Assembly (NCBI GenBank): GCA_039630575.1 | Contig: JBCNUW010000010.1 | Coordinates: 1-64,000, forward strand | DNA from: Candidatus Hydrothermales bacterium | Lineage (GTDB): Bacteria; Hydrothermota; Hydrothermia; Hydrothermales; JAJRUZ01 | Length of the DNA: 64,000 nucleotides | Direction of reading: 5' to 3' | In this document: positions 690 through 53,122 of the stretch, piece after piece | Layout of the letters: every line of letters starts with the position of its first letter | Position numbering within the stretch: the first letter of the stretch is position 1 | Program-made: the position numbers and the translations under genes | The notes under the pieces: generated by a model | Told to the model about the DNA's origin: nothing | Databases searched by the model: none | Seen by the model: only the letters and a program-made list of their open reading frames with translations

Positions 690-704
690 TAGGATTTGAA
701 CCTA
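690..704 (-). promoter_or_regulatory. T-arm-like hairpin TAGG-TTCAAAT-CCTA in 5' leader (copy 1)
   Basis: Minus strand reads TAA ATAGGTTCAAATCCTAAATCAAAAAAAAGTTCAATT ATG; 4-bp stem plus 7-nt T-loop, 21 nt upstream of ATG 670, no SD. Confidence 0.6.
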
Positions 705-705
705 T

Positions 706-3357
706 TTAATTTACATTTCTTAAAAGCCAAAGTAAATAGTTGTTTTTCTCAGTTTCTTTAATTTCTTTTAATTTTTTTTCAATTTTTTCATTTTTGAATC
801 TATTTAAACCTTTTATTGCTTCAGCCTTTAATCTTATACTTTTACTGTCAGAAAAATTTAAAAAGATCTCAATTATATCCGAAGTTGTATCCTTAACTTC
901 CTGTAGTATTCTTAAATAATGAAAAAGCGTCCTTTCATCGGATTCTTTTTTAGAATTATTAATTACAAGTTCCTTAATAGAATCTGCGTTACTTGATAAA
1001 ACTTTTTCCACAGCAAATCTTACTAAAGAATTTTCATCTTTTAAAAGAGGCACTAACTCTATTAAAAATTTTTTCTTTTTTATTTCACCACAGGCTCTTA
1101 TTGTTGAAATCCTTACATCTAAATCTTTTTCCTTTAAATACTTAAAAAGATTTTCATAACTTTCAGTTTTAAGTTTTGATAGTGAATAGATAATGCTTGC
1201 CTTTATATAATCTTTTTTTTCTCTTTTCAAAATTTCCCATAAAATTTGCTCCATTTCCCTTAATTCAGCCTCACCTATAAGATATATTACATTTTGCTTT
1301 AAAGTGTCATTTTCCTTTTTTAATGCATCCTTAAGATAAGACAAACTTAATTCCTTATTGTTTTTAATAACTTCCCTAATAGCTCTCAGCTCGAGACCCT
1401 TTAAAGTTTTTATTTTCCTTTTAAAAATGTAATCTAAGGCTTCTTTTTTTCTCTCAGAAAGCCTTTTTCTTGCTTCAGGAACAATTTTTTTATAAGAACC
1501 AACCTCCCACTCCGAAGCAATTTTAAAAAGCGAATCAATCTCTAAATTCTCTTGTATCTCTAAAAGGGCTCCTTCTTCCTCTTTATAAACTGTAGCTACT
1601 GTATCAATATCAAAACCAAATCCCAATTCTCCTTTTGTCCATAAAAATGGCTCATTTTTAATATATTCCCCCCTATAGTTATCCTTTCCCTTTAAATCAA
1701 CAAAAATTCCTATTCCTATCTTTCCTCTTGACATTTTTCCTCCTCCCTGCCCAAGCTCCTCAGTTGTAACATAAAGATCATTCCCCTCTACATCTACAAA
1801 AATTCCTACTGAAGTATTTAAACCTATTCCTTGCCCACCTGAAACTTTATAAGTATCATGTCCCCTTTTATCAATTAAAATACCAACAGAATAGTCATGC
1901 CCTTCACCCTGAGCAGGTCCGAACCTTGAAATGTAATCATCATCTCCATCTAAATCAAATAATCCACCTACAGCTAAATGAATACCAGCTCCTTGACCAT
2001 ACTCCGTAAGATGATAAAGATCATTACCCTTTTCATCTATTAAAACCCCTGATCCATAAAAATAACCACATCCTTGACCGTAAACTTCACTGTAATAAAC
2101 ATCGTTTCCCTCTCTGTCAATTAAGAAAGAAACTCCACCTCCAAGATAAGGTCTTATACCTAAAGAAAAACCCTGAGCAAACGAATTGGTCTCATCTGGC
2201 AATAAAGGTATAAAGAAGTTCTTCCCATATGCTATATAGGAATCGTTACCACTTTTATCAAAAAGTATTGAAAAACCTTCTGTGCTTGAAAAACTCTGAC
2301 CCATCTCAGTTAATTTGTATAAATCGTCACCATCAAGATCAAAGAGTAAAGACTTACCAAAAAATGAAGAAGCTTGAGAAAAAAAGTCTGATTCATAAAT
2401 ATCTTTTCCCTTTTTATCCATAAGAAAAGCTATACCAAACATTGAAGAAGAAATTGAAAACATTCTACCCTTTCTGATATCCTCTCCCTGTAAATCAAAA
2501 CTTATTGAAACTCCAAAAAAAGACGAAGAAATTGAAAAAATCTTATCAGAAAAATAAAAATCATTACCCTCTTTGTCAATAATTATAGAAAATGGAACAG
2601 AATAAAAAATAGAAGAAAAACCCACTCTACCTATGTACCTATCTTCACCTTTAAGATCAAAAATAATAAAGAAACTATCACCACTATAAATGTTATTCTC
2701 ATCTTTTAAATTTATTACTATACATCCCATTTCAGTTTTTATGGATGTATCTTTTAGATTATGTGATATTAAAAGGGATAACGTCAAATTAAAAAGGTTA
2801 ATAAAGGCAAGATTAAGCCCATCAAAAAGCTTCCTTTTATCAATCTTCAAAAGATACTCTGAAATCTTTTTTTCATCCCATATAATTTCTTCTATTTTTC
2901 TTCCCTTTTCTTTTTCAAAAACAGCATATAGATCCTTTTTTTCAATACTTTTTCTCTCAGCAAAAAAACTTGTTAAATTAAAAATTAAAGTATCCAATTT
3001 TTCCCTTTTTATTTTTGAAGTTGATTCTTTAATTAAAATCTTTGCTTTCTTTAAACTCCTTAATGACTTTGGAAGTATTTCATAGAAATTTTTCTCTTCA
3101 ATTTTGAAATTAAAAATTTTTTCTAAAATCCTTTTTTCTTCATCCATAAAGTTTTTATAAAATTTCTCTGAATATAAGGCAAGATTCAAAGGGTCTTTAA
3201 GAAAACTTAAAGTTAAAGTATCCTTAAGATTTGTATATAAACTCTTATCTTTTTCAAAACCAAGATCTTTAATTTCAAGAAATTGATATGAAAGTAAATC
3301 CTTTAAAATCTCAATTTCATTTTCTGAAATAAATAAGAATAAGAGAAAAACTATCAT
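706..3357 (-). CDS. Secreted protein with about 12 DxxGxDxY glycine-rich repeats and C-terminal HEAT-like repeats
   Basis: Repeats DLKGEDRY, DKEGNDFY, DLDGDDLY, DKSGNDSY, DREGNDVY, DEKGNDLY etc.; C-terminal helical repeats (LKDENSLVRFAVEKVL); short hydrophobic N-terminus. Confidence 0.75.
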   Translation of the reverse strand: MIVFLLFLFISENEIEILKDLLSYQFLEIKDLGFEKDKSLYTNLKDTLTLSFLKDPLNLALYSEKFYKNFMDEEKRILEKIFNFKIEEKNFYEILPKSLRSLKKAKILIKESTSKIKREKLDTLIFNLTSFFAERKSIEKKDLYAVFEKEKGRKIEEIIWDEKKISEYLLKIDKRKLFDGLNLAFINLFNLTLSLLISHNLKDTSIKTEMGCIVINLKDENNIYSGDSFFIIFDLKGEDRYIGRVGFSSIFYSVPFSIIIDKEGNDFYFSDKIFSISSSFFGVSISFDLQGEDIRKGRMFSISSSMFGIAFLMDKKGKDIYESDFFSQASSFFGKSLLFDLDGDDLYKLTEMGQSFSSTEGFSILFDKSGNDSYIAYGKNFFIPLLPDETNSFAQGFSLGIRPYLGGGVSFLIDREGNDVYYSEVYGQGCGYFYGSGVLIDEKGNDLYHLTEYGQGAGIHLAVGGLFDLDGDDDYISRFGPAQGEGHDYSVGILIDKRGHDTYKVSGGQGIGLNTSVGIFVDVEGNDLYVTTEELGQGGGKMSRGKIGIGIFVDLKGKDNYRGEYIKNEPFLWTKGELGFGFDIDTVATVYKEEEGALLEIQENLEIDSLFKIASEWEVGSYKKIVPEARKRLSERKKEALDYIFKRKIKTLKGLELRAIREVIKNNKELSLSYLKDALKKENDTLKQNVIYLIGEAELREMEQILWEILKREKKDYIKASIIYSLSKLKTESYENLFKYLKEKDLDVRISTIRACGEIKKKKFLIELVPLLKDENSLVRFAVEKVLSSNADSIKELVINNSKKESDERTLFHYLRILQEVKDTTSDIIEIFLNFSDSKSIRLKAEAIKGLNRFKNEKIEKKLKEIKETEKNNYLLWLLRNVN

Positions 3358-3395
3358 ATTTAAATTCTAAAGTATTTGACTTTAAAATATCTTAT
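3358..3395. promoter_or_regulatory. Putative bidirectional promoter giving leaderless or near-leaderless transcripts
   Basis: TAAAAT (3383-3388) 7 nt before ATG 3396 on +; TAGAAT (3369-3364) 6 nt before ATG 3357 on -; no SD on either side. Confidence 0.4.
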
Positions 3396-4475
3396 ATGAA
3401 ATTAAAAGAAGTTCCAATTGGATCTGATTATTATTTTGAATTTCCCTTTCTCTTTAAGAAAAAAAATAAAATTTTTAGCTTTTGGAAGGACTATCTTAAA
3501 AACTTGAAACTTTTTTTTTCAGGAAGGGATGCCCTTCGTTTTCTTTTGAATCACATTGGAAATAAATACTTTTTCCTTTTACCAAGTTATACTTGTTATG
3601 AAGTCATAAGACCCTTTGAAGAGTTAAATTTAAACTTTAACTTTTATAAAATAAGATTCATGCCAGAACCACAAATTGATCTTGATGATTTGAAAAAATT
3701 AATATTCAAATATAAAAATCCTATAGTTTTAATAATTGAATACTTCGGTTTTCCCCAAAATTATGAACTTGAAATTCCCTTTATCCTTGATATTAGCCAT
3801 TCTCTTTTGACTTTTAAAAAAAGGGAATTCAAAGTGAATCCAACTTATATTTTTGGATCACTGAGGAAGATATTGCCACTAACAGATGGTGGTATCCTTT
3901 TCCATGATGGGGAAATACCAAATAACTTAAAAAGTTACAGTAAAATTCTTTTAACTTTAAAATTAACTTCAAGTCTATTTAAAAATATACATTATGTAAT
4001 ACCAGAAAAAACCAAATTTCTATTTTCCTTTTCGTATTTTCAACTTGATAAAAGTTTCGAAAACTACCTCTCATACAAAAGAGAACCAAAAGATATTTCA
4101 TTTATCTCAAAATTTATGTTAAAAAGAATTCCTTATAGCTTTATAATTAAAAGAAGGAGAGAAAACTTTTTATACCTTTTAAAAAGTATAAATTTTGAAA
4201 AAATAAAACCGCTTTACAGTTATTTACCTTCCTCAGTTTGCCCATTAAACTTTCCCTTTTTTAGTGATTCTAAGAAAAAAATTAAGGAAACTTTAATTAA
4301 AAAGAGAATATTTCCCCCAACAATTTGGGATTATGTCCCACCTGTAATTGATAAAGAAAAATTTCCTGAAATATACACAATCCCTGAAAGGATTTTATCT
4401 TTACCGATTGATCATCGTTATAATATTAAACATATGGATAAAATTAAAAAAGCCTTGGAAGAATGTTTGGGATAA
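3396..4475 (+). CDS. DegT/DnrJ/EryC1/StrS-like PLP-dependent aminotransferase (divergent)
   Basis: SGRDAL, LLPSYTC, IEYFGF, LDISHS, GSLRK (candidate PLP lysine), RRENFLYL, ILSLPIDHRY motifs. Confidence 0.7.
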   Translation: MKLKEVPIGSDYYFEFPFLFKKKNKIFSFWKDYLKNLKLFFSGRDALRFLLNHIGNKYFFLLPSYTCYEVIRPFEELNLNFNFYKIRFMPEPQIDLDDLKKLIFKYKNPIVLIIEYFGFPQNYELEIPFILDISHSLLTFKKREFKVNPTYIFGSLRKILPLTDGGILFHDGEIPNNLKSYSKILLTLKLTSSLFKNIHYVIPEKTKFLFSFSYFQLDKSFENYLSYKREPKDISFISKFMLKRIPYSFIIKRRRENFLYLLKSINFEKIKPLYSYLPSSVCPLNFPFFSDSKKKIKETLIKKRIFPPTIWDYVPPVIDKEKFPEIYTIPERILSLPIDHRYNIKHMDKIKKALEECLG

Positions 4476-6448
4476 TTTTGTTTATTTATATATTTAAATT
4501 TAACAACTTCACACACTCCGATACTTTTTTCTTTTTTTCTGTAAAAAACGAAAGTTTATTCATAGCAGCTGACCACGGACTTTACATTGTCAATATGAAG
4601 AAAGATTCTGTTATATACAAATTTACAAACTCTGACTCAATCCCACTTTATCCATACTATTCAGTATGCATTTTTAATAATTTTTTAATCTTTACAAGCC
4701 CTTTAAACCTTGTTTACATTGATTTAGAAAACAAAGAAAAATATTTCTATCCTTCCCTTTTTTTAGAAAAAGATATTTACAGAACAATCATAGTAGAAAA
4801 AGATACTATTTTTCTCGGTGGAAATAAAGGGCTAAAAGGCATTAAAAGAAATAATACAGTTACTACCCATGATGATATCATTTTTTTTGAAAGAAAGAAT
4901 TATTTACCAAATGATACAATTTATTCTCTTTTATCTAAGGGAGATTCTATCTTTATTGGAACAAAGAAGGGATTATATAAGGTAAAAAGAAACTCGTTAG
5001 GTTTTGTTTCTCCAATTCTACATACTGGTGTAATAAATGGGAAAATTAAAGTTTTAAAAGAATCTGATAAAAAGATATTTGTTTCAGCAGACAGTTTCCT
5101 CTATGTTTATCCTGACTCACTTATAACAGTTTTTCCATCTGTGATAAATTCCATCTTTGTAAAATCTGATACATTGTTTGTTGGAACGGAAGACGGTGCT
5201 TTTATTTTCTATAACAATCAAAGAACAAAATTTACAGATTTTTATGTTAATTCTTTAATTAAATTTGAAAACAAAATCTATATGGGAGGTTTTGGAGTCA
5301 TTGTATACGATTATAAAAGAGATAATTTCTTAAATTTTAAAAATCTCTATAAAGAACTATCTTCAAATAATGTCTCATCTGTTAAAAAATTTGGTAAATA
5401 CTATGTAGTAGCAACTGACAAAGGTATAGATATTTTCAATGAGAAATACGAAAGGGTGAATAATTTACTAACAGGATGGGCTAGAACCTTTGATGAAAAT
5501 TCAAATACTATGATAGCCTCAGTATGGTGTGGATTTCTTTTTAAGATTGACTCTTTTTTTAAGGTTTATGATACTCAACAACTTTTCTACTGTATTCAGC
5601 TTTTGAAATTTATTGATGATTCAACTTTTTTTGTTTTAAAACCTGCTCAAGGCTCTATAGAAATTAGAAATTTAAAGGATGAGAAATTGCATGAAATCTT
5701 TAACCTTAATTATTCCACAGATATAGAAAGCTTCAACGGAAATTATTATGTTTCAAATACAGATGGAAATATCTTTAGTATTGATAAAAATTTAAGAGTA
5801 AACTTTTTATTTAATGTAGGTTATCCTGTATATGACCTTTTTATAAATAAAGATAAAATTTACTTAGCAACAAATTCAGGTCTTTTAAAATATAGTTTTC
5901 CTGATTTTAAATTTGAGAAAATATATCAAACACAAAATCCCTACACTACATCGGTTATAAGTGACAAATCGGGAAATATATATGCTTTAACAAGAGGAGG
6001 ACTTTTGTTTATATCAAGTAGTGATGATAAAGAAAGGACTCTTGAATACGGTACGAAAAGTATTGTCAAAACAGAAAACATTGATTTTAATTCACAATGT
6101 TCTGCCTCCCTTTTATACTATGAAATTTTTGAAAATGAGATTTTAATTGGTACAAATGATGGATTCTCAATATTAACCGTAGAGGATTCTGATATTTTTC
6201 CATCTGAAGAAACTATAATCTTCCCAAATCCGATTAAAAAAGAAAATGGATACTTTTTCTTAAAAACAAGCAAAGACATAAAAGAGATCTATATTTATTC
6301 ACCTTCAGGACTCTATAAAAAATTAGACTTTTTAAAATTAAATAAAGAGAGTTATTCGATAAGTACCTCTGGGATTGAAAGAGGATTTTATATACTTTAT
6401 ATTAAAACTTTTGATAATGTAAAACCCTATAAAATAATATGTGAGTAA
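4463..6448 (+). CDS. Beta-propeller protein with T9SS-like C-terminal sorting domain (PorZ-like architecture)
   Basis: Repeated IFIGTKKGLY/LATNSGLL blades; C-terminal IFPNP...IYIYSPSG...GFYILYIK. Confidence 0.65.
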   Translation: MFGIILFIYIFKFNNFTHSDTFFFFSVKNESLFIAADHGLYIVNMKKDSVIYKFTNSDSIPLYPYYSVCIFNNFLIFTSPLNLVYIDLENKEKYFYPSLFLEKDIYRTIIVEKDTIFLGGNKGLKGIKRNNTVTTHDDIIFFERKNYLPNDTIYSLLSKGDSIFIGTKKGLYKVKRNSLGFVSPILHTGVINGKIKVLKESDKKIFVSADSFLYVYPDSLITVFPSVINSIFVKSDTLFVGTEDGAFIFYNNQRTKFTDFYVNSLIKFENKIYMGGFGVIVYDYKRDNFLNFKNLYKELSSNNVSSVKKFGKYYVVATDKGIDIFNEKYERVNNLLTGWARTFDENSNTMIASVWCGFLFKIDSFFKVYDTQQLFYCIQLLKFIDDSTFFVLKPAQGSIEIRNLKDEKLHEIFNLNYSTDIESFNGNYYVSNTDGNIFSIDKNLRVNFLFNVGYPVYDLFINKDKIYLATNSGLLKYSFPDFKFEKIYQTQNPYTTSVISDKSGNIYALTRGGLLFISSSDDKERTLEYGTKSIVKTENIDFNSQCSASLLYYEIFENEILIGTNDGFSILTVEDSDIFPSEETIIFPNPIKKENGYFFLKTSKDIKEIYIYSPSGLYKKLDFLKLNKESYSISTSGIERGFYILYIKTFDNVKPYKIICE

Positions 6449-7593
6449 TGAAGTTTAAAATTTATCCTGAAGATTTTTTTGTGGAAGAAATTTTAAAGGA
6501 AGGAGTTTTAAAAGACAAGGGTATTTTCAAGCTTTATAAAGCTAAAAAAGCCTCTTTGGAGAGTCTTTATCTAAAAAAATTAATAGAAAGAACCTTCAAT
6601 ACAAAAATTAGTTTTGCAGGTTTAAAGGATAAAAAATCTGTTAGCATCTTTTATTTTACAGCAAAGGGAAATATTCCAAACTTTATTAGATTTAAAAATT
6701 TTTCTGCAGAATTTGTTGGTTATTCAGATAAGGACTTGACTGGTAGTGATTTAGAAAAGAATAATTTCAAAGTTACTCTGAGAGAAATAAAGGAAAAAGA
6801 AATTGAGAAAATAAGTAAAATTCTTGAGGACTTAAAAGTAAAGGGATTCCCTAACTACTTTGATATTCAGAGATTATCCTATGACCCAGCCAGTCTTTTT
6901 TTTCCCTATATCTTAAAGAGAGATTATAAAGAAGCAATAAGAGTTCACCTTCTGTCTCTTTCACCAGATTCAAGAAGAAATTTAAGAAGATTTAAAAAAC
7001 TTTTAAAAAAGTATTTTTATGAACCAAGTAAACTGCTTTACTTTGCTCCTTCACAAAAAGAAAAAGAAATAATAAATAAATTAATAAAAGGTAAATACGT
7101 TGAAATTTTAAAAAACATAGAACCTGATATTCTAAAAATTTATTTTGAAAAATTTTCTTCCTACCTTTGGAATAAATGTGCAAGTAAATTTCTAACAAAA
7201 AATAAAATAAGTAATAAAAGGGGTTTTAAAGTCAAAATAAAAAATGTTTATCTTTTTATACCAGAAAAGATCAATGAAAGAGCAAAAGAAATTGTTGAAA
7301 ATTCTTTTTTCCCAGTTCTTGGTACAGATGAACTAGTCTCCCAACCTGAATTTGAAGAAATTCTTATAAAAGAGCTAAAAAAGGAAAACATAGATTATCC
7401 ATTAAAAATTCCAGATTTTTTTAAAGATTTTTTTTATAAAAGTTATCAAAGAAAATTATGGATATACCCTGAAAATTTAAGTTACCAATACCTAGATAAA
7501 AAGTTAATACTCAACTTTTCACTTGATCCTGGTGCCTATGCTACACTTTTTATAAAAATACTGATGAGAAGACTTAAATTAGGTATCCTTTGA
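6448..7593 (+). CDS. truD: tRNA pseudouridine(13) synthase
   Basis: KIYPEDFFVEE, FAGLKDK (catalytic Asp), NNFKVTLR, GFPNYFDIQR, FSLDPGAYAT. Confidence 0.9.
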   Translation: MKFKIYPEDFFVEEILKEGVLKDKGIFKLYKAKKASLESLYLKKLIERTFNTKISFAGLKDKKSVSIFYFTAKGNIPNFIRFKNFSAEFVGYSDKDLTGSDLEKNNFKVTLREIKEKEIEKISKILEDLKVKGFPNYFDIQRLSYDPASLFFPYILKRDYKEAIRVHLLSLSPDSRRNLRRFKKLLKKYFYEPSKLLYFAPSQKEKEIINKLIKGKYVEILKNIEPDILKIYFEKFSSYLWNKCASKFLTKNKISNKRGFKVKIKNVYLFIPEKINERAKEIVENSFFPVLGTDELVSQPEFEEILIKELKKENIDYPLKIPDFFKDFFYKSYQRKLWIYPENLSYQYLDKKLILNFSLDPGAYATLFIKILMRRLKLGIL

Positions 7594-7992
7594 AAGAATA
7601 AAAATAGCAATAATTGCAAGGATTATTCCCAAATATTTCTTTAAAGTTAACTCTTCTTTCAAGAAAAATTTAGCAAGGATAACTGTAAAGGCAGGATATA
7701 AGGAAGTAAGAGGAACAATTATTGAAGCTTTTCCTTTTGTAAGTGCCAGGTAAAAGGTAATTGTTCCTATGGAACCAGCAAAAAAAGCAAGAAATAAATA
7801 TAAAATTCCACTTGTTTTAAAACTTATTTCGTTTTTAAAAGTTAAAAAGAGCAAGGTAGAAAAAAATAAAGAAATTAATGTGGAGAAGATATAGTACTCG
7901 TACCACTTAAAAAATTTAGTTGATATCTTTGAAAAAAATCCCCACAATCCCCATGTCAGGAGGGTAACAAAGGGTAAAATTAAACTCTCCAT
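7579..7992 (-). CDS. EamA/DMT family small transporter
   Basis: WGLWGFFSK, ALTKGKASIIVPLTSLYP, FFLKEEL; about 5 TM helices. Confidence 0.85.
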   Translation of the reverse strand: MESLILPFVTLLTWGLWGFFSKISTKFFKWYEYYIFSTLISLFFSTLLFLTFKNEISFKTSGILYLFLAFFAGSIGTITFYLALTKGKASIIVPLTSLYPAFTVILAKFFLKEELTLKKYLGIILAIIAIFILSKDT

Positions 7993-8042
7993 AAATAAAT
8001 TTTAAAATAACTTATCTTATAATAACAAAAAAGGAGGTAAAC

Positions 8043-9275: not shown

Positions 9276-9276
9276 T

Positions 9277-10324: not shown

Positions 10325-10338
10325 GGTTCAAATCCCAA
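10322..10338 (+). promoter_or_regulatory. T-arm-like hairpin GGG-TTCAAAT-CCC in divIVA leader (copy 2)
   Basis: TAGGGTTCAAATCCCAAATTAATAATAATTTAT ATG; core 10325-10335, 19 nt upstream of ATG 10355, no SD. Confidence 0.6.
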
Positions 10339-10354
10339 ATTAATAATAATTTAT

Positions 10355-10828: not shown

Positions 10829-10831
10829 TTT

Positions 10832-12462: not shown

Positions 12463-12463
12463 T

Positions 12464-20267: not shown

Positions 20268-21026
20268 TTGAGAAATTTAAGTATGATTGAAATTATTTTT
20301 CTTGGAACAGGTGGAGGAAGAGTTGTTGTTTTTCAGGGTTTAAGGTTAAGTGGGGGTTTATTGATAAATAGTAGAGAATTTTTAATTCATATAGATCCTG
20401 GACCAGGAGCATTAAATGCCCTTTTAAAAAATGGATTTTACCCAAATAAAATAGATTATGTTTGGATTACTCATAAAGATTTAGATCATACGGGAGAATT
20501 AAATATTATAGTGGAAGGAATGACAGAGAGTGGTTTCAAGAAGAGGGGTACTTTATACGCTCCTGAAGAGGTTTTAAAAGAGCATATACTCCTTGAATAT
20601 TTGAGAGAATATCTAAATGAAATTGTTATTATAAAAAATGAAAGTGTTTACTTTATAAAAGATCTTAAATTTATTACATCACCTCCTCATAATCATAGAG
20701 GGGTGGAATGTTATGGCTTTGTTATTGAAAATTACTCTTTTGGCTACCTTGTGGATACAAGACCAGATGAGAAAATTTTAAACTTTTATAAAAATTTAGA
20801 TTATTTGGTTATAAATTGTGTACTTTTAGAACCAAAAGAGGATGTTTATCACATCAGTTTAAAAGATGTTCCTTTTATTTATGAGATAACAAAACCTAAA
20901 AAGTTAATTCTAAATCACTTTGGAATGAAACTTTTAAAGTATGGGTTTAGAAATATCTCAGATTATCTTAAAAATTATAATATTCCCTTTTTAATAGCCT
21001 ATGATAACATGAAGATAGAACTATAG
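20268..21026 (+). CDS. MBL-fold metallo-hydrolase (start may be ATG 20283)
   Basis: FLGTGGGR, IDPGPGAL, THKDLDH, HNH, VDT, LNHFG. Confidence 0.8.
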   Translation: MRNLSMIEIIFLGTGGGRVVVFQGLRLSGGLLINSREFLIHIDPGPGALNALLKNGFYPNKIDYVWITHKDLDHTGELNIIVEGMTESGFKKRGTLYAPEEVLKEHILLEYLREYLNEIVIIKNESVYFIKDLKFITSPPHNHRGVECYGFVIENYSFGYLVDTRPDEKILNFYKNLDYLVINCVLLEPKEDVYHISLKDVPFIYEITKPKKLILNHFGMKLLKYGFRNISDYLKNYNIPFLIAYDNMKIEL

Positions 21027-26911: not shown

Positions 26912-26940
26912 TTGACAAAGTAAATATTTTACTTTATAAT
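26912..26940 (+). promoter_or_regulatory. Consensus sigma70 promoter
   Basis: TTGACA (26912-26917), 17-nt spacer, TATAAT (26935-26940). Confidence 0.85.
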
Positions 26941-26950: not shown

Positions 26951-26971
26951 AAGAATGGTTCAAATCCTCTT
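26951..26971 (+). promoter_or_regulatory. T-arm-like hairpin AAGA-AT-GG-TTCAAAT-CC-TCTT at transcript 5' end (copy 3)
   Basis: Core GGTTCAAATCC 26957-26967, about 10 nt after predicted TSS and 22 nt before TTG 26990. Confidence 0.55.
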
Positions 26972-26989: not shown

Positions 26990-27577
26990 TTGAAAATAAT
27001 TTATGCTCTTTTGGTTATGGTTCTTATATTTTTTTCTTGTAGAGAAAGAGAGGGAACTTTTGTTTTGAGAGTATCTCTTCAGAATTATAGAATGGGAATT
27101 GATGTTGTAAAAAGAGTTAACTCTTCTTATGTTTTTACTTATGATACAATTTCTGCGAATTTTACTTTTAATGCCGTAAATACCTCTTTGGAGGGGCATG
27201 AACCTGTTTTGATAGTGGATAGCTTTAAGATTGAGTTCTTTGATCTTTCTAAGACTCCTGCACAAAAAATTTCTTTTGATGTTGCTCCCCCTTACAGAGA
27301 TAGTGTCTCTGTTATTTCATATCCATATTTAATTTACAAACTACCTTTTGAGGTGTTACTAGACGAAACATTTACCTTAACAATACCTGTTTTACCCTCT
27401 TATATCAAGCATATGTATGAGCCATTTTATAATTTATGGCGTAATCAAGATCCTAAGGTACTATATTTAAAAGCTGTTTACACTTTTTATTCTCATGAAC
27501 ACTATACAGGTAAAAGGCTTGACCCTGTAAATTTGGAGTTAACCCTTGAAGTAGCTGATTTTGCCGATGAAGAATAA
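26990..27577 (+). CDS. Hypothetical lipoprotein upstream of secretin
   Basis: SD AAGGAGG then TTG: MKIIYALLVMVLIFFSC (lipobox); beta-rich body; start reassigned from 26948. Confidence 0.7.
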   Translation: MKIIYALLVMVLIFFSCREREGTFVLRVSLQNYRMGIDVVKRVNSSYVFTYDTISANFTFNAVNTSLEGHEPVLIVDSFKIEFFDLSKTPAQKISFDVAPPYRDSVSVISYPYLIYKLPFEVLLDETFTLTIPVLPSYIKHMYEPFYNLWRNQDPKVLYLKAVYTFYSHEHYTGKRLDPVNLELTLEVADFADEE

Positions 27578-32946: not shown

Positions 32947-33426
32947 ATGAAATGTAAATATATAAAAAACCTTATTCTGAAGGAAAAACTTGAAGAAAAA
33001 GATCTTTTACATTTAAGAAGTTGTGAAAGTTGTTACTCCTATTATGAAATTTTAGATTTTCTTTCATTTAACTTTAAAAATATTAAAAAATTAGAACCAC
33101 CTGAAAAAGTCTTTGATATAATTAAAAGAAAGATCAAAACTGAAAAAATTTTTACAATATTTTTAAGTTTCTATATTGTATTTTTTTCTTTGATATCTTC
33201 TTTTTTATTTTTAGTTTACAAAGGCATTTACTTTGAAAGCTTTCTTAGTAGTATTATTATAATTTTTATTAAACTTTTGTTTTTTAACCCTGTAATCTCA
33301 AAAGTTTTGAAATTTGTAACTATTTTCTTATTCTTAAATCTACACATTTTTTTGATAGCACTTTCTATTTTTATATTTATTTTCTTTAAAAGGGTTTTAA
33401 CCCCTTTAAAAGTTACGGAGGTTTAA
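32947..33426 (+). CDS. Zinc-binding (ZAS, HxxxCxxC) membrane anti-sigma factor
   Basis: MKC...HLRSCESC followed by 2-3 TM helices. Confidence 0.75.
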   Translation: MKCKYIKNLILKEKLEEKDLLHLRSCESCYSYYEILDFLSFNFKNIKKLEPPEKVFDIIKRKIKTEKIFTIFLSFYIVFFSLISSFLFLVYKGIYFESFLSSIIIIFIKLLFFNPVISKVLKFVTIFLFLNLHIFLIALSIFIFIFFKRVLTPLKVTEV

Positions 33427-33427: not shown

Positions 33428-34483
33428 ATGTTTTTATTTTATATGTTTTTAATCATTAATGTTAGTACAGAATATAAAGAATACAAAAACAAAGTTATTG
33501 TTGACAAAAAAGATACTTTGATTGGGGACGTTTCAGTGATTGGTAAAGATGTGGAGGTTTTAGGAGGGATTAAAGGGGATCTTGTAGTTATAAGTGGAGA
33601 TCTTAAATTAGAAGGTTTTGTTAAGGGTGATGTGGCAGTTATAGGAGGAAATTGTAAAGTTTATAAAGGGAGTTTGGTTCTTGGGGATATTGTTGGAATT
33701 GGTGATAAGATTCATATAGAGAAAAATGCTAAAGTTGAAGGTGAGAGGGTAACACTTAGCCCAGGATTTTTACTTTCTCTTTTTAAAATTTTGAAATTTT
33801 TTGGAAAAGGAGTTTTTATTACAAAAGGAGAACCTAAGAAAGAGGAGGTTTATTTGGATACTTTAGAATATAAAGAAGAAAGTGATACCTTAGAAAAAGT
33901 GATAGAAGAAAAAGAAGAATTCATAGAAGTTGAAAAAGAGGAAACACCGAAGAAAAATTTCCTTAAGGTTTTCTTAATCATGTTTTTTGTTGTTTTTTAT
34001 TCTTTTTTAGTTTCTTTAGTAAGGTTTGTCTTTCCTGGATCTGTTGAAAATATGAGAAGGGAACTCGAGTTAAAACCATTTATTTCCTTAGCTGTTGGTT
34101 TTTTAGTACAACTTCTTTACCCTTCCTTTTTAGTTATCTTAGCTGTATCTATTCTCGGTATACCCCTTGCTCTTGCACTCATTTTCTCAACTCCTTTCTT
34201 TTTAATTTATGGTTCTTCACCTTTATTTATAGTTTTTGGTAAATTTATTCTTGATAAGTTTAAATACTCAAAAATTAGTGACTTTAAGTGTATATTGGCA
34301 ACTTCTCTATATCTTTTTTTAGTCTCATTGATTACAAGTTTATTTCTATATTTTGATTATGAAGGTTTCTTTTATAAACTTATAAAATTCTTTTTCTTTT
34401 CTTTTTCTTTTTTGAATTTTTATGTAGTTTTTACTTTTGCTACTGGTATTATTTTCACTGCCAAACTTGGTATAAAAAGATAA
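33428..34483 (+). CDS. Polymer-forming (bactofilin-like beta-helix) membrane protein
   Basis: GDVSVIG/GDLVVISG/GDVAVIGG/GDIVGIG repeats, acidic linker, multi-TM C-terminus (SILGIPL). Confidence 0.75.
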   Translation: MFLFYMFLIINVSTEYKEYKNKVIVDKKDTLIGDVSVIGKDVEVLGGIKGDLVVISGDLKLEGFVKGDVAVIGGNCKVYKGSLVLGDIVGIGDKIHIEKNAKVEGERVTLSPGFLLSLFKILKFFGKGVFITKGEPKKEEVYLDTLEYKEESDTLEKVIEEKEEFIEVEKEETPKKNFLKVFLIMFFVVFYSFLVSLVRFVFPGSVENMRRELELKPFISLAVGFLVQLLYPSFLVILAVSILGIPLALALIFSTPFFLIYGSSPLFIVFGKFILDKFKYSKISDFKCILATSLYLFLVSLITSLFLYFDYEGFFYKLIKFFFFSFSFLNFYVVFTFATGIIFTAKLGIKR

Positions 34484-34487
34484 CACT

Positions 34488-40479: not shown

Positions 40480-40554
40480 GCCCCCGTAGCTCAATGGAAG
40501 AAGAGCGCCTGGCTTCGGACCAGGAGGTTGCGGGTTCAAATCCCGCTGGGGGCT
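40480..40554 (+). tRNA. tRNA-Arg(TCG), CCA not encoded
   Basis: Acceptor GCCCCCG/TGGGGGC, anticodon arm CCTGG-CTTCGGA-CCAGG, T arm GCGGG-TTCAAAT-CCCGC. Confidence 0.9.
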
Positions 40555-40570
40555 TTTAAAAAATTTTAAA

Positions 40571-42292: not shown

Positions 42293-42306
42293 AAGGAGGT
42301 GTGATT

Positions 42307-42759: not shown

Positions 42760-42769
42760 GGGGGTTTTA

Positions 42770-43938: not shown

Positions 43939-43945
43939 CATTTCT

Positions 43946-45561: not shown

Positions 45562-46006
45562 ATATTATTTTTTAACAAAAGGTTTTGGTGTTGCTAATAG
45601 AGAGCTTTTATCATTTGATAGAGCTTTAAGAAGTGCAAAAATAGATAATTTTAATCTTGTTAAAATATCAAGCATATTACCACCTGGTGTGAAGAAGTCA
45701 AAAAAAATCAATTTACCTAACGCTTCAATCCTTCATGTTGCCTATGGTTATGTAATTTCAAACAGAGAGAGAGAAGTTATTTCAGCTGTATGTGGTATAG
45801 CTATTCCTCAGAAAGAATGTGAAATAGGTGTAATAATGGAGTGGAGCTCTTATGGAAGTAAACTCAAAGGTGTGGAGGAGGTAAGGAATATGCTTGAAAA
45901 GTCTATGTCAGATAGGAATATTAAGATAAAAAAAATCGAAATTGTATCAATTGAAAAGATAGTTAAAGAATATACTTGTGTTTTTGCGGGTTGTGCTATA
46001 TTCTAG
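45539..46006 (+). CDS. pdaD: Pyruvoyl-dependent arginine decarboxylase
   Basis: SFDRALRSAKIDNFNLVKISSILPP with Ser-Ser autocleavage site; start uncertain. Confidence 0.85.
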   Translation: MSGKRVFRYYFLTKGFGVANRELLSFDRALRSAKIDNFNLVKISSILPPGVKKSKKINLPNASILHVAYGYVISNREREVISAVCGIAIPQKECEIGVIMEWSSYGSKLKGVEEVRNMLEKSMSDRNIKIKKIEIVSIEKIVKEYTCVFAGCAIF

Positions 46007-46015
46007 TTTAATTCT

Positions 46016-46044
46016 TTGATTTTTTAAAACTTGTTGATTATAAT
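46016..46044 (+). promoter_or_regulatory. sigma70 promoter of metK
   Basis: TTGATT, 17 nt, TATAAT (46039-46044). Confidence 0.6.
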
Positions 46045-46057
46045 AAATTATTTTATA

Positions 46058-46079
46058 AAAAGGGTTCAACTTCCCTTTT
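46058..46079 (+). promoter_or_regulatory. T-arm-like hairpin variant AAAAGGG-TTCAACTT-CCCTTTT in metK leader (copy 5)
   Basis: 7-bp stem with 8-nt TTCAA-starting loop just after predicted TSS, 27 nt before TTG 46102. Confidence 0.5.
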
Positions 46080-46101
46080 AAAAAGTGATGGAGTTAAAAA
46101 G

Positions 46102-47250
46102 TTGAGAAAAATTAAAGGGATTTCATATTTTACATCAGAATCTGTGACAGAAGGCCACCCAGATAAACTTTGTGATCAAGTTTCAGATGCTATTCTTGAT
46201 GCTATAATTGAAAAAGACCCTGATGCAAGAGTAGCTTGTGAAGCCCTGACAACAAGAGGGATATTTATTATCGCTGGAGAGATTACTACTGAATGTTATG
46301 TAGAAATACCAGATATTGTAAGGGATACAATAAGGGAAGCAGGGTATACTAATCCTGCTTATGGACTTGATTATGAGACTGTGGCTGTTTTAACTGCGAT
46401 TCAATCCCAGGCTCCAGATATTGCGATGGGTGTAGATATAGGAGGAGCAGGTGATCAGGGTATGATGTTTGGATTTGCTATAAAAGAGACTGAAGAACTT
46501 ATGCCTCTTCCAATAATGTTTTCTCACAAGCTTGTTAAAAGACTTGCAGATGTTAGAAAAAATGGAACTTTACCTTACTTAAGACCTGACGGAAAATCCC
46601 AGGTGACTGTTAGGTACGTTGATGGTAAACCTGATAAGGTTACTGCGATAGTACTCTCTGCTCAACATGATCCTGATATCTCAATAAAAGAGTTAAGAGA
46701 GGATCTGATAGAAGTGGTTATAGAAAAGGTCATTCCAAGAGAAATAATGGATGATAATGTTAAAATTTTTATAAATCCAACAGGGAGATTTGTAACGGGA
46801 GGACCGCAAGCTGATACTGGATTAACTGGGAGAAAAATAATGGTTGATACTTACGGTGGTTACGCAAGACATGGTGGGGGTTGTTTTTCTGGAAAAGATC
46901 CTACAAAAGTTGATAGGTCAGCTACATATATGGCAAGATATCTTGCTAAAAACATAGTTGCTTCTGGTATAGCTGAAACCTGTGAAATACAACTTGCCTA
47001 TGCGATCGGAGTTCCAGAACCTGTTGCTGTTTATGTTAATACGTATGATACTGGCAAAGTTCCTGAAGAAAGGATAGTCAAGTTTATTAAGGAAAGGTTT
47101 GATCTTACACCAAGGGGCATAATAAATTTCCTTAATCTCAGGAGACCAATCTTTAAGAGAACGGCATGTTACGGACATTTTGGGAGAGAGGAAGAGGGTT
47201 TTACTTGGGAAAGGTTGGATAGCAAAGAAGAGTTTAAGGAGTTATTGTAA
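46102..47250 (+). CDS. metK: S-adenosylmethionine synthetase
   Basis: [49 protein letters not shown]. Confidence 0.98.
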
Positions 47251-47294
47251 AATTATGAATTAACTCAATAAAATATTATAAAAGGAGATAAAAT

Positions 47295-50200
47295 ATGTGG
47301 TATTTATTTTTAATGATTAGCATAAATGGGTTTGTAAAGTCAGTTTTAAAAGATTAACTCAAGAGTATGAGATCGACACATTCATAACAAGGAGAATCCC
47401 CCACACAGCTTATCAGAGATTTATTGACATCACTTACAATCACCTTGATCGAGAGTTTTTAATTGTGTGGGCAGATGCAAGATCTGGTAACTATGAAATT
47501 TACGGAACCATAATAAATGAAAGAGGAAAGGAAAAAGTAAGAGGAGGCTTCAAGATATCACCTGGAAGAGGAGATTTTCCTTCGTGTGCTTTTGATGGCG
47601 AAAATTACATAGTTGTTTATATAGATTATAGATTTGATGGTAATGGTGATGTATATGCTGTTAGAGTTAGAAGAGATGGTCGTATTATTGATAATAATGG
47701 TATGTTAATAAATTACGGTATTTCAGGAGATCCCCGTAGAACTGATGTTGCCTTTACAAACGGATACTATCTTGCAGTTTGGGATGAGGGGGATGCATTA
47801 ATTAGAGGTGCAAGAGTTCTTCCTAATGGAAATGTATTAGATCCGGGTTCTATCTTGATAATTGATGCAGCAAATGCCCAATATGGAGCAAGTGTTGATG
47901 GAGATGGAACTCGATTTTTAGTTGCTTGGCATGATTATAGAAATGGAGCAAACTGGGATTTATATGCTACTTTCTTAGATCCAGTAACAGGTTCTTTATC
48001 TCATCCTTCAGGACTTCCTATTATGACCACAGGTTCACATTCTTTATGGCCAAAGGTTACTTTTCATCCAGTTTTGAATAGATACGGGGTTGCTTTTATG
48101 GATAATACTCCAGGTTTTTATCAGATTTATGGATGTATAATTAGAAAAGATGCTACTTTTGCTGTATCTCCAAAGAGGATAACTACATCTACTACCCATG
48201 ATCAATATGGTTTTCTAATTCCTTTGCATAATAAAAACTTTGTAATTACTGTTACTCAAGCTTACAGTGTTAGCTCATCTGGTGAAGTTTATGTGGGAAC
48301 CACTGATTCTCTTTTGAATATGTTTCCGACTACTCATGTTCTAACTTCAACTACATATAATGAGGGTTATGAAAACTACACCTTACCATTTGCTACAACT
48401 CTTGATTCTGTGATAATTATAGGTTACAATGTTTATCATTCAGGTAATTATCAAGAAGTTGGCATTGCCAAAATTCTACCAACTTTAACACTTCGTTTTT
48501 CTGATTTTTACATGGGTTGGCAGGCACCAAGCCAATCTGGGCCAAGAGCTGCAAAAGCAGGAGATAGGTTTATAGTTGTTTACTCCCAAATGGGTTTAGC
48601 TGGAAATTTAGATATATATGGGCGTATCTATACTTTTTCAGGATTACCTTTGACAGAACCTTTTGTTATTACAAGTGCTGCACATGATCAAAGAAATCCA
48701 GTTGTTACTTACAATCCAATTACTGATAACTTTATTTGTGTTTGGGAGGATTTTAGAAACGGTAATTGGGATATATACGGTACCAGAATCTCTCTCTCTG
48801 GTGTTGTGATAGATCCGGCAGGCTTTTCTGTTGTTGCTTTTACACAAGATCAGTTAAGACCATCAATAGCTGTAAGTTCCTTGAATGGTAATTTCTTCGT
48901 TTCATGGTCTGATTTTAGAGCTAGTGCATGGGATATCTATGGGAAGCTTTTTACCTCAACAGGTTCTCCTCTGACCGGTGATCTGGTATTGTCAAATGCA
49001 GGTGGAACTCAAGATTACTCAACAGTTACATTTATTCCATCCTATAACAGATACTTTATAGTGTATGAAACTGATCAAAACGGTAGATGGGATCTTTACT
49101 TTAATGCTGTAAGTGGAGCTGGTTCTGTACTACATGGTTCTGGCGGTTCAGCTCTTTTCACATTGTATTCTCATAAAAGATTTCCTTCATCTGTTTTTAA
49201 TGGTATAAATATAGTTTTGACATGGAGTGATTATAGAAGCGGTTCTCAATGGGATGTTTATGCATCAAGAGTCTCACCCTTTGGTGCTTTACTTGATGGA
49301 GATGGAATTCCAGTCTCAAGGGGTTCTTGGCAGGAAGCTGTTTCAAATATTGCTAATTTAGGTGACCATTTACTTATTATTTGGCAGGACTCAAGGAATG
49401 GTAGAATGGATATTTTTGGAAAAATTCTTGATTTTACCTTAAACCAGCTACCTGAAGAGTATTTACTTTCAAATCTGAGAGTTAATGGTTTTCTATTTTC
49501 ACCTAACGATTATCCCTTACAGATTGCTAATTTGGTGCCTTTAACTGATTCAACCTTTGCACTTTTATATGAGAGATTTAAAACTTCACCCTACAATAAT
49601 AAAAGATCCCATACTATTCTTTTTAGGGATAATTCACCTTCCTTCACAATTTTGCCATTTTCTGACACTTTCTTATACACGAATCAAGTTGCAAACATAA
49701 GATGGACAACAAGAGGTTTGATAGAGAGAGTTTCTCTTGCCTATTCTTCTGATAATTGTCAAAATTTCTTCTATTTAAAAAGTGATACCTTAAATACTGG
49801 AAACTTTAATTATACTGTCCCTCAAACTCCGACAAGATATTTTTATCTTAAGCTTGAAAGTAGAGGAATGTGGAATATCTTTAAGATATCAAGAAGATTG
49901 TATGTCTCAGATAAGATAGATATCACTTATCCTAATTCTCCTTCTGATACTTTACAAATTGGAAACTCTTATATCATACAGTGGAGGAAAAGTGGTATAG
50001 GAGGCTTTGTAAAAATAGAAATTTCCTATGACGGAGGATCAACATTTTCAATAATTGAAAGTGCTTGTCCAGATACAGGTAGGTACCTTTGGAACTGTCA
50101 AGGAGTTGTAACCACTAACGCCGTCTTAAGGATCACTCATAATGAGTTTATGCAGAATAGAGATTTGTCAGGTAATTTTGTAATAAGAGGGGTTCAACCT

Positions 50201-51046
50201 CCTTCTCCTTCCATACAAGTTTTAAATCCAAATACGAGAATAACAAAATATGTTGGTGATACTCTTAACATCAGGTGGATTTATTCAAATGTAAATAATT
50301 TTAGAATACTTTTAACACCTGATAGTTCATTGAGTTATGTAGTGATTAATCCTGCAATATCATACACTGGTACTTACCTATGGACTGTTTCTGACTATGA
50401 AACTCCGTTTGCTAAAATTAGAGTCGAAAATCTAAACAATCCTTTAATTTATGATGAGAGTGATGATTACTTTATAATAAAACAACCAATTTTGATCACT
50501 TCTCCTTCATCAGGTGATACCTTCAGGGGTGGAAGTTATCTAAATGTTTCTTGGAATATTTTAGAACCCAGACTTGTCGATACTGTGGATATTTTCATTT
50601 CTTATGATGGGGGTAAGAATTTCTTGTTAATTGGTGATGATATTGAAGCTGCCCAATCCTCTTTTAATTTCCTTTTACCTAACCAAGACTATGACTCCTG
50701 CAAGATTAAAATAGTTCATCATAAAAGAGAATGGTTAATCAAAAAGGAAAGTGAGGGTTACTTTACAATAACTGCTGTAACAAATTTAGATGAAAAAGAC
50801 TTTGATGGAGTTAAATTAAGTTGTTCTTATTGTAGAGATTTTATATTCCTCTATATCGATTCTGATAAAAGACTTTCTTTTGAAATATATGATACAGGTG
50901 GAAGAAAAGTTTTAAAGGGTAAAAGATTATTTAAAAAAGGTGAAAACAAAATAGATCTAAGGCATATGAGGCAGGGTCTATATATCTTAAAGATTTTTTA
51001 TGAAAATAGTAAAATTTATGAGACTAAGTTCATTGTGGTAAAATAA
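47295..51046 (+). CDS. Large secreted beta-propeller + Ig-like repeat protein with T9SS-like CTD; frameshifted near 47345-47351
   Basis: SD AAGGAG plus ATG 47295 gives MWYLFLMISINGFVKSVLKD* (stop 47355-47357); the -1 frame is open from 47321 into ORF 47465-51046 with WxDxRxGxWDIYG repeats, about four IxxPN/S...GxxxxIxW Ig-like modules and IYDTGGR...GLYILK CTD. Confidence 0.75.
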
Positions 51047-51075
51047 AGTAAAATTAAAAATTTTATTAATAGAAT

Positions 51076-51870
51076 TTAGGGTAAGGGAAATAAAATTACA
51101 AGGTAAAGAAAATAAAAGTAAATAGAAAATAGAAGTGAATCTATTCTATCAAGAAAACCACCATGACCTGGTAAAAGGTTTGAGGAATCTTTAACTCCCA
51201 TTTCTCTTTTAAACATTGATTCCCATAGATCACCAGCAAGTGCTGATAAAGAGAGAAAAGTTGCAATAATTATTCTTCTAAGAATACTCTCTCTAAGTAA
51301 GAGAGCAAAAATTATAGAAAAAATTAAAGTTGAGATAAAACCTCCTATTAAACCTTCTAAAGTTTTACCTTGAGACACTCTCTCCCATAGTTTCCTTTTT
51401 CCAAAATATATACCCGTAAAGTAGGATAAAGAATCGAAAACCCATACAGATCCAAAAAGAAAGAGAATTTCTTTAACTCCATATAGGACTTTTAACTGAA
51501 AAAGTAGGTAAGATGGTATTAATAAGTAAAAAACTGAAACTAAAGCTGCTGATAGGAAATTAAAGCCTTTTCTTTTTTCTGCATAGATTAGGGAAATCAA
51601 AAAGAATATAAAAATTAAGAAAAAAGTTAAAAGAATTCTTATATTAGAAAATAAAATTAATAAAGGAAAAAAGATTAAATTAAGTATAAAAATAATGTAG
51701 GGTCTAATTATAAATCCAGCTCTATAAAGAATCTTTAAAAACTCAAAGAGAGAGAAAAAAAGGAAAATATATATAAGAACAAAGAAAGAAAAGTTGCCCA
51801 AAAGTGTTAAAACAAGAACTAAAAAGATTGAAATTAAACCTGTTAATACTCTAAGCGGTAATTTTCCCAA
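51076..51870 (-). CDS. cdsA: Phosphatidate cytidylyltransferase
   Basis: [50 protein letters not shown]. Confidence 0.95.
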
Positions 51871-52537
51871 ATCTTCTCACTCGTTTTGAATATTCTTTAA
51901 TCGCATTAACAAAATCTTCCCTTCTAAATTCAGGCCAATATTTTTCGGTAAAATAAAGTTCAGTATAAGAAAGTTGAAAAAGAAAAAAGTTAGAAATTCT
52001 CATTTCTCCACTTGTTCTTATTAAAAGATCAGGATCAGGAATATTAGGTACATAAAGATATTTTCTAAATTCATCCTCACTTATTTCCTTTTTCCCATTT
52101 TTTAAAATTCTATTAACTGCGTCAATTATCTCCCTTTTCCCTCCGTAATTTATTGCAAGAATAAGGATCATGTCCTTGTTTTCTTTAGTTCTATCTATTA
52201 CCTCCTCTATAATTTTTCTTGTACTTTTAGGTAATTCCTCAATTTTCCCCATTACTATTACCTTTATTCCATTTTCAACCAAATTCTTAAGCTCTTTTTT
52301 TGCAACAGATTCAAGGAGACTAAAAAGTCCCTTAACCTCTTCTTCTGACCTCTTCCAATTTTCTGTAGAAAAAGTAAAGAGTGTAAGGTATTTTATCTTA
52401 AGTTCTCTTGCTACCTTTATTATTTCTCTTACTGATTCCACTCCTTCTCTGTGTCCTAAGAGTCGTGGTAAATTTCTTTCTTTTGCCCATCTTCCGTTTC
52501 CATCCATCACAATTGCCACATGTTCAGGTATTTTCAT
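51851..52537 (-). CDS. uppS: Undecaprenyl diphosphate synthase
   Basis: [41 protein letters not shown]. Confidence 0.97.
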
Positions 52538-53088
52538 TCTTCCATTATTTCTTTCTCTTTAAGTTTAATTATTTCCTCTATTTCTCCTATTTTTTTCTCT
52601 GTTAAATTCTCGACTCTTTTTTTCATAATCTCTGCTTCATCTTCTGATACTTCTCCATTTTCTTTTTTTTCTTTTATTTTGTCCATCAAATCTCTTCTTA
52701 TATTTCTTAGAGCAATTTTTGAGTCCTCACCAAATTTTCTTACAAGTTTAGCAAGCTCTTTTCTTCTTTCTTCTGATAAAGGAGGAATCGGGATTTTTAT
52801 TATACCTCCCTCAACTTTAGGAGTAAGCCCTATTCCACTTTTTAATATTGCCTTTTCAATCTCTGCTAGTATATTTTTATCGTAAGGTTTTATCACAATT
52901 AACTTAGGTTCTGGAATACCTATTCCTGCAATCTGAATAATCGGTATCTCCTGGCCGTAGTAATTTACCTTGATGTTTTCTAATATATGAGGTGAAGCCC
53001 TTCCTGTTCTTAACCTTTTTAATTCGTCCTTCAAGGCATTAATACTTTTTTGCATCCGACTTTCACCGTCCTTTATTATTTCTTCCAT
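52534..53088 (-). CDS. frr: Ribosome recycling factor
   Basis: LRTGRASP, YYGQ, IPPLSEERRKELAK, RNIRRD. Confidence 0.97.
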   Translation of the reverse strand: MEEIIKDGESRMQKSINALKDELKRLRTGRASPHILENIKVNYYGQEIPIIQIAGIGIPEPKLIVIKPYDKNILAEIEKAILKSGIGLTPKVEGGIIKIPIPPLSEERRKELAKLVRKFGEDSKIALRNIRRDLMDKIKEKKENGEVSEDEAEIMKKRVENLTEKKIGEIEEIIKLKEKEIMEE

Positions 53089-53101
53089 TTTTTTTAAACT
53101 T

Positions 53102-53122
53102 TAAAAGGATTTGAACCATCTA
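53102..53122 (-). promoter_or_regulatory. T-arm-like hairpin TAGATGG-TTCAAAT-CCTTTTA in frr leader (copy 4)
   Basis: Core on minus strand 53117-53107, 18 nt upstream of ATG 53088; spacer TTTTAAAGTTTAAAAAAA has no SD. Confidence 0.6.

Follow-up and report, generated by a model that had tools for sequence, protein, structure and literature searches.

Minimal hairpins of the tRNA T-loop type precede start codons in a family of Hydrothermales bacteria

Results

T-loop hairpins in the window

The stretch of DNA analyzed here (the window) comprises positions 1 to 64,000 of contig JBCNUW010000010.1 from a Candidatus Hydrothermales bacterium (assembly GCA_039630575.1), and the genome holding it (1.89 megabases, 30% GC) is designated G000. 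The window carries short hairpins that resemble the T-loop of transfer RNA (tRNA) and stand at a limited distance before the start codons of protein genes; in what follows, we characterize this element across the genome and its family and weigh whether it may recruit ribosomes. An earlier note on the window had reported four exact copies of GGTTCAAATCC outside tRNA, and all four were present where it had placed them, with a fifth match belonging to the T-arm of tRNA-Arg. Shuffled sequences contained 0.06 copies on average, and 1 was the largest count in 100 shuffles. The hairpins and the features next to them are as follows, with distances in nucleotides (nt), stems in base pairs (bp), and Shine-Dalgarno sequences abbreviated as SD.

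692..702, minus strand: T-loop hairpin, 4-bp stem; 3 nt past the upstream stop (706) and 21 nt before the ATG at 670; no SD
10325..10335, plus strand: T-loop hairpin adjoining the upstream TAG, the G of which forms the third pair; 19 nt before the divIVA ATG (10355); no SD
26912..26940, plus strand: consensus sigma-70 promoter, TTGACA-17-TATAAT, as read from the sequence; upstream of the next copy
26957..26967, plus strand: T-loop hairpin 16 nt downstream of a perfect -10 hexamer and 22 nt before the start (TTG, 26990) of the gene that precedes the secretin gene; SD present
33393..33403, plus strand: possible degenerate copy, weak (C56 to T, longer stem); 24 nt before the ATG at 33428; SD present
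40480..40554, plus strand: tRNA-Arg; its T-loop ends 27 nt before an SD-less ATG (40571)
46016..46044, plus strand: promoter-like site (10/12) upstream of the metK copy
46062..46075, plus strand: variant with an 8-nt loop and a 7-bp stem; 26 nt before the metK TTG (46102); weak SD
53107..53117, minus strand: T-loop hairpin, 2-bp stem; 18 nt before the frr ATG (53088) and 8 nt after a -10-like hexamer; no SD
60423..60495, plus strand: tRNA-Gln; its T-loop ends 27 nt before an SD-less ATG (60511)

The distances that the earlier note had given for the four exact copies (21, 19, 22, and 18 nt) were reproduced, and so was the lack of an SD in three of the five leaders. Its 27 nt for the metK variant is correct if counted from position 46074 but becomes 26 nt before the TTG when counted from 46075. 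Pfam confirmed the names divIVA, frr, metK, and secretin, while the protein called FG-GAP turned out to be a truncated product of 223 residues for which no family was found; the open reading frame (ORF) at 26990 likewise matched no protein family. The statement that the flanks of each copy extend the stem was too strong, because a T/T mismatch adjoins GG/CC in the copies at 53107-53117 and 26957. Over the whole window, both Rfam at its gathering threshold and ARAGORN returned three tRNAs and nothing else.

Occurrence in the genome and the family

With start codons assigned by a simple ORF caller of our own, the pattern GGTTCNANNCC was found 163 times in G000 outside tRNA and transfer-messenger RNA (tmRNA) calls. 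Of these occurrences, 122/163 had the sense orientation and stood 15-36 nt upstream of a potential start, and five were antisense; the reversed pattern, used as a control, gave 2/21 at such positions. The working catalogue contains 126 copies (127 minus one tmRNA-like end). Counted together with tRNAs, the pattern followed by an ATG at 16-30 nt occurred 126-215 times per genome in 6/6 genomes of the family versus 5-74 times in 266 other genomes of WOR-3, the group that the survey covered. The scans, together with the covariation and the orthologue comparison described below, support the earlier proposal of a lineage-specific, sense-strand, structured element tied to the start codon. They revealed neither random orientation or distance, nor missing covariation, nor a corresponding Rfam family, nor binding of double-stranded DNA independent of pairing. 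The proposed intergenic position needs qualification, for 13/126 copies are embedded in the end of the preceding coding sequence and 20 more are no farther than 10 nt from its stop.

That the downstream genes are unrelated held true genome-wide. They include frr, divIVA, metK, and the genes of S1, S21, S6, IF3, and S15, as well as those of EF-Tu, S12, L7/L12, RpoA, and EF-P, which were named from their N-termini only. By these comparisons, the element is a real, conserved, family-wide RNA element with the defining bases of the T-loop. We found no published description of such an element in the literature searched, with most subscription papers and bioRxiv supplements lying outside the search.

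Three further observations concern its distribution. The infC gene (L231; G000 C17) has an apparent ATG start in the five genomes compared and is preceded by the hairpin in the family and by an SD in the sister family. A bin of the sister family, G010, carries several free T-loop copies before ATG on small contigs (C25, C31, C38, and C39), which may reflect transfer or contamination. Viral contigs contain at least 118 pattern matches, but these are uninformative, their spacing being spread evenly.

Structure and sequence constraints

The pair immediately outside GG/CC (the third pair) was of the Watson-Crick type in 79/126 copies versus 43.4 ± 4.9 in shuffled controls, while slid controls and every pair beyond the third gave no pairing signal in the 126 copies. 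When the outer G-C was changed, an ATG followed 8/91 paired variants versus 1/224 unpaired ones, and in one orthologous leader the G-C of G000 corresponds to an A-U in G001 and G004. Covariation was seen at pairs 51-63 and 52-62; genome-wide, only one pair beyond GG/CC covaries, which again is less than the stem extension proposed earlier. The stem measures 2-4 bp in 105/126 copies and only 2 bp in 40/126, the probability that it pairs has a median of 0.10 at 37 °C and of 0.07 at 70 °C, and the flanks are unconserved.

The loop was constrained at particular positions. Variants at U54 stood upstream of genes in 0/72 cases and those at A58 in 0/71, and variants at G53 did so in 6/507. In the second genus, the fetched part of G005 yielded 29 orthologues, of which 27 retain the element; between G000 and G005, the closing G53-C61, U54, and A58 are unchanged in 27 orthologue pairs, loop changes fall at positions 57, 59, and 60 and once at 55, and at the third pair both sides have changed in eight cases and the pair is broken or formed in seven. 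Constraints on G53-C61, U54, and A58 are features of the T-loop fold, and these comparisons indicate that the element is a minimal RNA hairpin of the tRNA T-loop type. Separate classes with 6- or 8-nt loops were considered and rejected as types of the element. Position 57 is a pyrimidine in 25/126 copies. TrmI requires a purine there, which makes this enzyme, named in the earlier note among possible readers of the motif, an unlikely one.

Position relative to the start codon, SD, and promoter

Among SD-less copies, 87/94 end 17-25 nt before the start, whereas the 32 SD-bearing copies end 21-39 nt before it (median 27). Intra-operon copies, that is, those inside the upstream coding end or no more than 10 nt from its stop, number 33/126 and show no peak of -10 boxes; for the remaining 93, -10 boxes form a broad peak 8-16 nt upstream, without fixed spacing. 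A reading as a promoter element was rejected for want of a fixed distance to the -10 box and in view of the intra-operon copies. Spacers are depleted of AUG in all bins (11/27, 5/19, and 2/14), a feature to which our choice of starts itself contributes and which does not help to distinguish between the mechanisms.

In the sister-family genome G006, of which about 2.05 of 2.1 megabases were examined and which is without some core genes, orthologues of hairpin-only genes carry an SD in 36/49 cases. There, SD genes keep their SD in 40/50, and other SD-less, non-coupled genes have one in 28/129 (p = 4e-10 for hairpin-only genes versus the latter). The window genes give examples: the divIVA orthologue of the sister family has an SD in place of the hairpin, metK of the sister family has a strong SD and no hairpin, and the frr hairpin is retained in the close relative L001 and is replaced by an SD in G006. 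Leaderless-like genes, defined by a -10 box ending 4-8 nt before ATG, were counted among 376 non-coupled genes with unambiguous starts and made up 115/243 genes with neither signal versus 2/58 with the hairpin and 0/75 with an SD only. Such genes are plentiful in G000. Taken together, the comparisons indicate that the position of the hairpin is set by the start codon and that the hairpin occupies genes using an SD in the sister family.

tRNAs ahead of SD-less genes

G000 has 43 tRNA or tmRNA genes that are not followed by a tRNA, and in 20 cases an ORF starts within 60 nt of C62. Seventeen of these 20 starts are SD-less, and 15/17 of the latter lie 20-27 nt from C62 (p = 4e-7 versus a uniform distribution), as compared with 28-37 nt for the three SD starts. 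Both window tRNAs with a gene behind them have it 27 nt from the T-loop. After a stop codon, SD-less starts occur at gaps of 0-8 nt in 61/126 cases and of 9-16 nt in 27, whereas tRNA gaps are never shorter than 9 nt. In the sister-family genome G008, 21/29 pattern matches, read by eye and with ORFs unchecked, are tRNA ends with an SD-less ATG at 20-27 nt, and two further tRNA ends, also read by eye, precede SD starts at 35-36 nt. The sister family as a whole has 127 matches at 16-30 nt versus 58 at 31-45 nt. Because SD-less starts lie 20-27 nt from the T-loops of real tRNAs, a spacing nearly equal to that of the free copies (the difference is 3 nt, p = 7e-4), the element resembles a tRNA reduced to its T-loop. 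The simplest history would be that SD-less genes led by tRNAs go back to the ancestor of the order and that one family kept only the T-loop.

A tmRNA-like 3' end lies on the minus strand at the end of contig C22 of G000, ahead of tRNA-Leu, and its sequence is unlike that of the full tmRNA (C35:4000-4357). Contig C83 carries repeats of the tmRNA end of the small contig C35, which may mean two tmRNAs, an integration site, or contamination of the bin.

Search for a partner

Since the stem has 2-4 bp and is not predicted to fold alone, a partner would have to hold the hairpin. The anti-SD tail of 16S ribosomal RNA (rRNA) was canonical and unaltered in two family and two sister genomes; the tail was read in family genomes other than G000, whose 16S rRNA is not assembled. 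S1 is of full length, and S21 is 4-7 residues longer at its C terminus in the family. TruB, TrmI, and TrmFO are present and single-copy in carriers and non-carriers alike, with no duplicated or fused form seen, and RNase P RNA occurs in the family and its relatives.

An arm-less RNase Z-like metallo-hydrolase (G000 C78:10557-11294; also L358:1267-2010), patchy across WOR-3, gave E values of 1e-33 to 1e-38 across 6/6 family genomes; it was not found in five sister genomes (nothing better than 1e-10), and 23 WOR-3 genomes that lack the hairpin expansion also have it at E ≤ 1e-30. Its G001 orthologue scores 149.9 bits, below the NCBIfam cut-off of 292.95, and relative to the Bacillus subtilis enzyme (1y44) the protein has a gap at residues 152-200, which we take to be the elbow-binding arm. 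No RNase J exceeded the cut-off in five genomes, and 45/46 tRNAs lack an encoded CCA. A second RNase Z-like gene of the metallo-beta-lactamase fold, which matches RNase Z models weakly, lies in the window (20268-21026, plus strand), and the sister family contains weak matches of this kind too.

Family-specific proteins were also considered. A very basic protein of 80 residues (L354:1498-1740; G000 C89:21785-22028, minus strand), which includes an Mrr-like fragment and has a hairpin leader, was found in 0/57 other class genomes and gave weak fold matches (best Z 6.8); it was rejected as an obligate partner, being found in only 4/6 family genomes even with a profile search. No match in the fetched G006 DNA was found for 503/1861 G000 proteins, and the part of them inspected by eye included no clear RNA-binding candidate. 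Among the side observations, an NYN-domain protein (G000 C67:30421-30964; L333:14605-15138) is 82% identical between the two genera and has no match in the fetched G006 DNA. Between the 23S rRNA of the family (L341, L342, and L344) and that of the sister family (L343 and L345), variable helices differ, the family having a longer H68 tip and a shorter H38 tip; no sequence there is common to the whole family, and this is a lead only. The 23S rRNAs of L344 (G005) and L345 (G006) are interrupted at a common position by insertions of 800-900 nt; these contain ORFs of about 180 residues and are probably group I introns with LAGLIDADG-type endonucleases.

Discussion

Three mechanisms had been offered for the element in the earlier note: SD-independent ribosome recruitment, a processing site, and a thermostable protective hairpin. 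The first is the best supported, and on balance we lean toward the hairpin being a ribosome-recruiting substitute for the SD. Recruitment is favored because it accounts for both the lower and the upper limit of the spacing, its shift in the presence of an SD, the intra-operon copies, and the exchange with an SD in the sister family. A minimal T-loop in mRNA, with a closing G53-C61 pair, a U54-A58 pair, and a stem of 2-4 bp, would act as a handle for initiation, standing in for the SD in about three-quarters of its genes and supplementing it in the remainder. The weak stem may fold on binding to a surface of the initiating ribosome that otherwise holds the tRNA elbow, candidates being the N-domain of IF3 on the 30S platform and the L1 stalk of the 70S ribosome; the docked hairpin would then put the AUG, 17-25 single-stranded bases downstream, into the P site. 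According to the available text of PMC9723500, initiator tRNA meets the N-domain of IF3 at psi55, C56, and A57, and in that of PMC9142559, tRNAs placed in cis lift translation in vitro 2-6.3-fold. TruB, TrmFO, and TrmI, the T-arm enzymes, may modify the hairpin. As for its origin, tRNA genes may have been co-transcribed ahead of SD-less genes in the order, the family keeping only the T-loop, which could then have spread to roughly 125-200 genes, many of them for translation. The complete picture, a genome-wide, structure-based start signal in which a tRNA-derived T-loop docks on an elbow site of the ribosome or IF3 and defines a start 17-25 nt downstream, we regard as possible, though falling a little short of an even chance.

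Several observations weigh against recruitment. As far as the accessible text of PMC9142559 goes, enhancement required the whole tRNA-like fold, took place with an SD present, and was independent of the T-loop sequence, and PMC9458429, in its accessible part, attributes an apparent structure-based internal ribosome entry site activity in Escherichia coli to S1 plus an SD-like element. No partner emerged from the ribosomal proteins, IF3, 16S rRNA, and T-arm enzymes compared, and S1, S4, S11, S13, S18, IF3, L1, L11, and TruB have no family-specific insertion. Among non-coupled genes, hairpin and SD are not anti-correlated (12/75/46/243, p = 0.74), and in 128 of these genes neither an SD nor a hairpin nor a strong leaderless promoter was detected. 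In G006 the tRNA spacing is less marked (7/12, p = 0.027), the excess is small in most other families of the class (ratios of 16-30 to 31-45 nt of 0.84-1.76), and a mere requirement for single-stranded RNA behind a processed or folded tRNA would suit that spacing as well.

The serious rival, although we think it unlikely, is that the hairpin is a minimal t-element at which tRNA 3'-processing machinery cuts about 11 nt downstream, leaving an A/U-rich leader of 6-14 nt. The cutter would perhaps be the arm-less RNase Z-like protein, possibly guided by a T-arm enzyme, or RNase E/G, with short-leader translation following as after release of an upstream tRNA. Such a scheme fits the tRNA parallel and the heavy use of the short-leader route in these genomes: the leftover leaders would be alike (6-14 nt for free copies versus 9-16 nt for real tRNAs), and the SD core begins at least 10 nt past the hairpin in 30/32 SD copies. 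The near-complete lack of encoded CCA, the absence of an RNase J above the cut-off, and the RNase Z-like gene of all six family genomes, not found in the five sister genomes, point the same way, and in plant mitochondria, by the available part of PMC1920247, t-elements sharing the motif mark RNase Z 5' ends. However, those t-elements fold like tRNAs according to the same text, whereas the hairpin lacks an acceptor stem and has a stem of 2-4 bp. The RNase Z-like protein lacks residues 152-200 and scores below the NCBIfam cut-off, its gene occurs in 23 WOR-3 genomes without expansion, and the sister family, where it was not found, has the tRNA spacing nonetheless. Many copies stand just behind a promoter, and to make a short leader there by cleavage would be a roundabout route. 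Free and tRNA spacings differ by 3 nt; if leaderless mRNA were the goal, a fixed ruler would predict a sharp AUG position.

It is quite improbable, in our view, that the hairpin serves as a landing site for a T-arm enzyme or some other protein, be it for protection of the 5' end or for standby binding, with initiation driven by S1 on the A/U-rich spacer and the 17-nt floor reflecting the ribosome footprint. TruB, TrmFO, and TrmI are at hand, the loop presumably matches the determinants of TruB and TrmFO, S1 is complete, and the tendency of the -10 box to lie 8-16 nt upstream in 93 copies places the hairpin near the 5' end; TruB-type motifs are modified in bacterial mRNA as well, to go by the available text of PMC13236023. 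This reading leaves unexplained why 87/94 SD-less copies lie no farther than 25 nt from the start, why the spacing shifts when an SD is present, why 33 copies are intra-operon, and why an SD takes the place of the hairpin in the sister family. Against it also stand the equal copy number of the T-arm enzymes in carriers and non-carriers and the occurrence of U55-to-C variants in orthologous leaders. The thermostable protective hairpin of the earlier note is weakened further by the low pairing probabilities at both temperatures and by the 33 intra-operon copies. A DNA element, either part of a promoter or a transcription factor site, that merely resembles a T-arm would suit a stem too weak to fold alone and could, if asymmetric, yield the strand bias, but it is very hard to credit given the copy-by-copy covariation of the pairing, the variable -10 spacing alongside a spacing that tracks start codon and SD, and the absence of free copies within 80 nt upstream of 47 tRNA/tmRNA genes, bar one tmRNA-like end.

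How starts are chosen on leadered, SD-less bacterial mRNAs is an open question, and structure-based recruitment is disputed (PMC9458429, in its accessible part). If the hairpin does recruit ribosomes, the SD, leaderless, and S1/A-rich starts of bacteria would be joined by a further mode of initiation, and unprocessed tRNAs would serve as ribosome-binding sites for the genes behind them, which would give a function to tRNA placement. If processing is correct instead, the hairpins would amount to tRNA punctuation in a minimal form, used throughout a bacterial genome. Under both readings, more than 100 natural variants define an element of 11-13 nt with a measurable spacing rule that is accessible to short synthetic leaders, and the element aids start-codon annotation in the lineage.

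Comparison with known systems places the element outside the classes of tRNA, t-element, yjdF, and SD. With the T-arm of tRNA (part of Rfam RF00005), it shares G53-C61, U54, U55, C56, A58, a 7-nt loop, and a closing stem; unlike the T-arm, it has no D-loop, acceptor stem, or 5-bp T-stem, leaves position 57 free, stands in mRNA leaders, and has no Rfam match. ARAGORN and Rfam on the window, together with the pairing test on 126 copies, gave no cloverleaf or acceptor-plus-T minihelix. Plant mitochondrial t-elements, as described in the available part of PMC1920247, also carry the T-arm motif outside tRNA genes and are linked to mRNA 5' ends, but they are folds of about 70 nt with demonstrated cleavage, of which a genome has only a few and which may be hundreds of nt away from the AUG, whereas the pairing test on the 126 copies of the hairpin found no tRNA-like fold with an acceptor stem. 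The yjdF riboswitch and engineered cis-tRNA leaders resemble it in having a tRNA-like structure upstream of the start, one that raises translation and binds ribosomes; in the accessible text of PMC9142559, theirs is a whole, ligand-dependent fold of one gene family with an SD present, in contrast to 11-13 nt before about 125-200 mostly SD-less genes, and the hairpin had no Rfam match to a yjdF-type riboswitch and no conserved flanks. TruB-type mRNA substrates share loops containing GUUC, which the available part of PMC13236023 does not report at a fixed distance from the start. The SD is comparable in being a short signal that is scattered over the genome, keeps a set distance from the start, and stands in front of the same genes in the sister family; yet the element is a hairpin and not a pairing strand, lies 17-25 nt away, and exists beside an anti-SD that is intact and still used, no altered 16S 3' tail for pairing with it having been found in the genomes compared.

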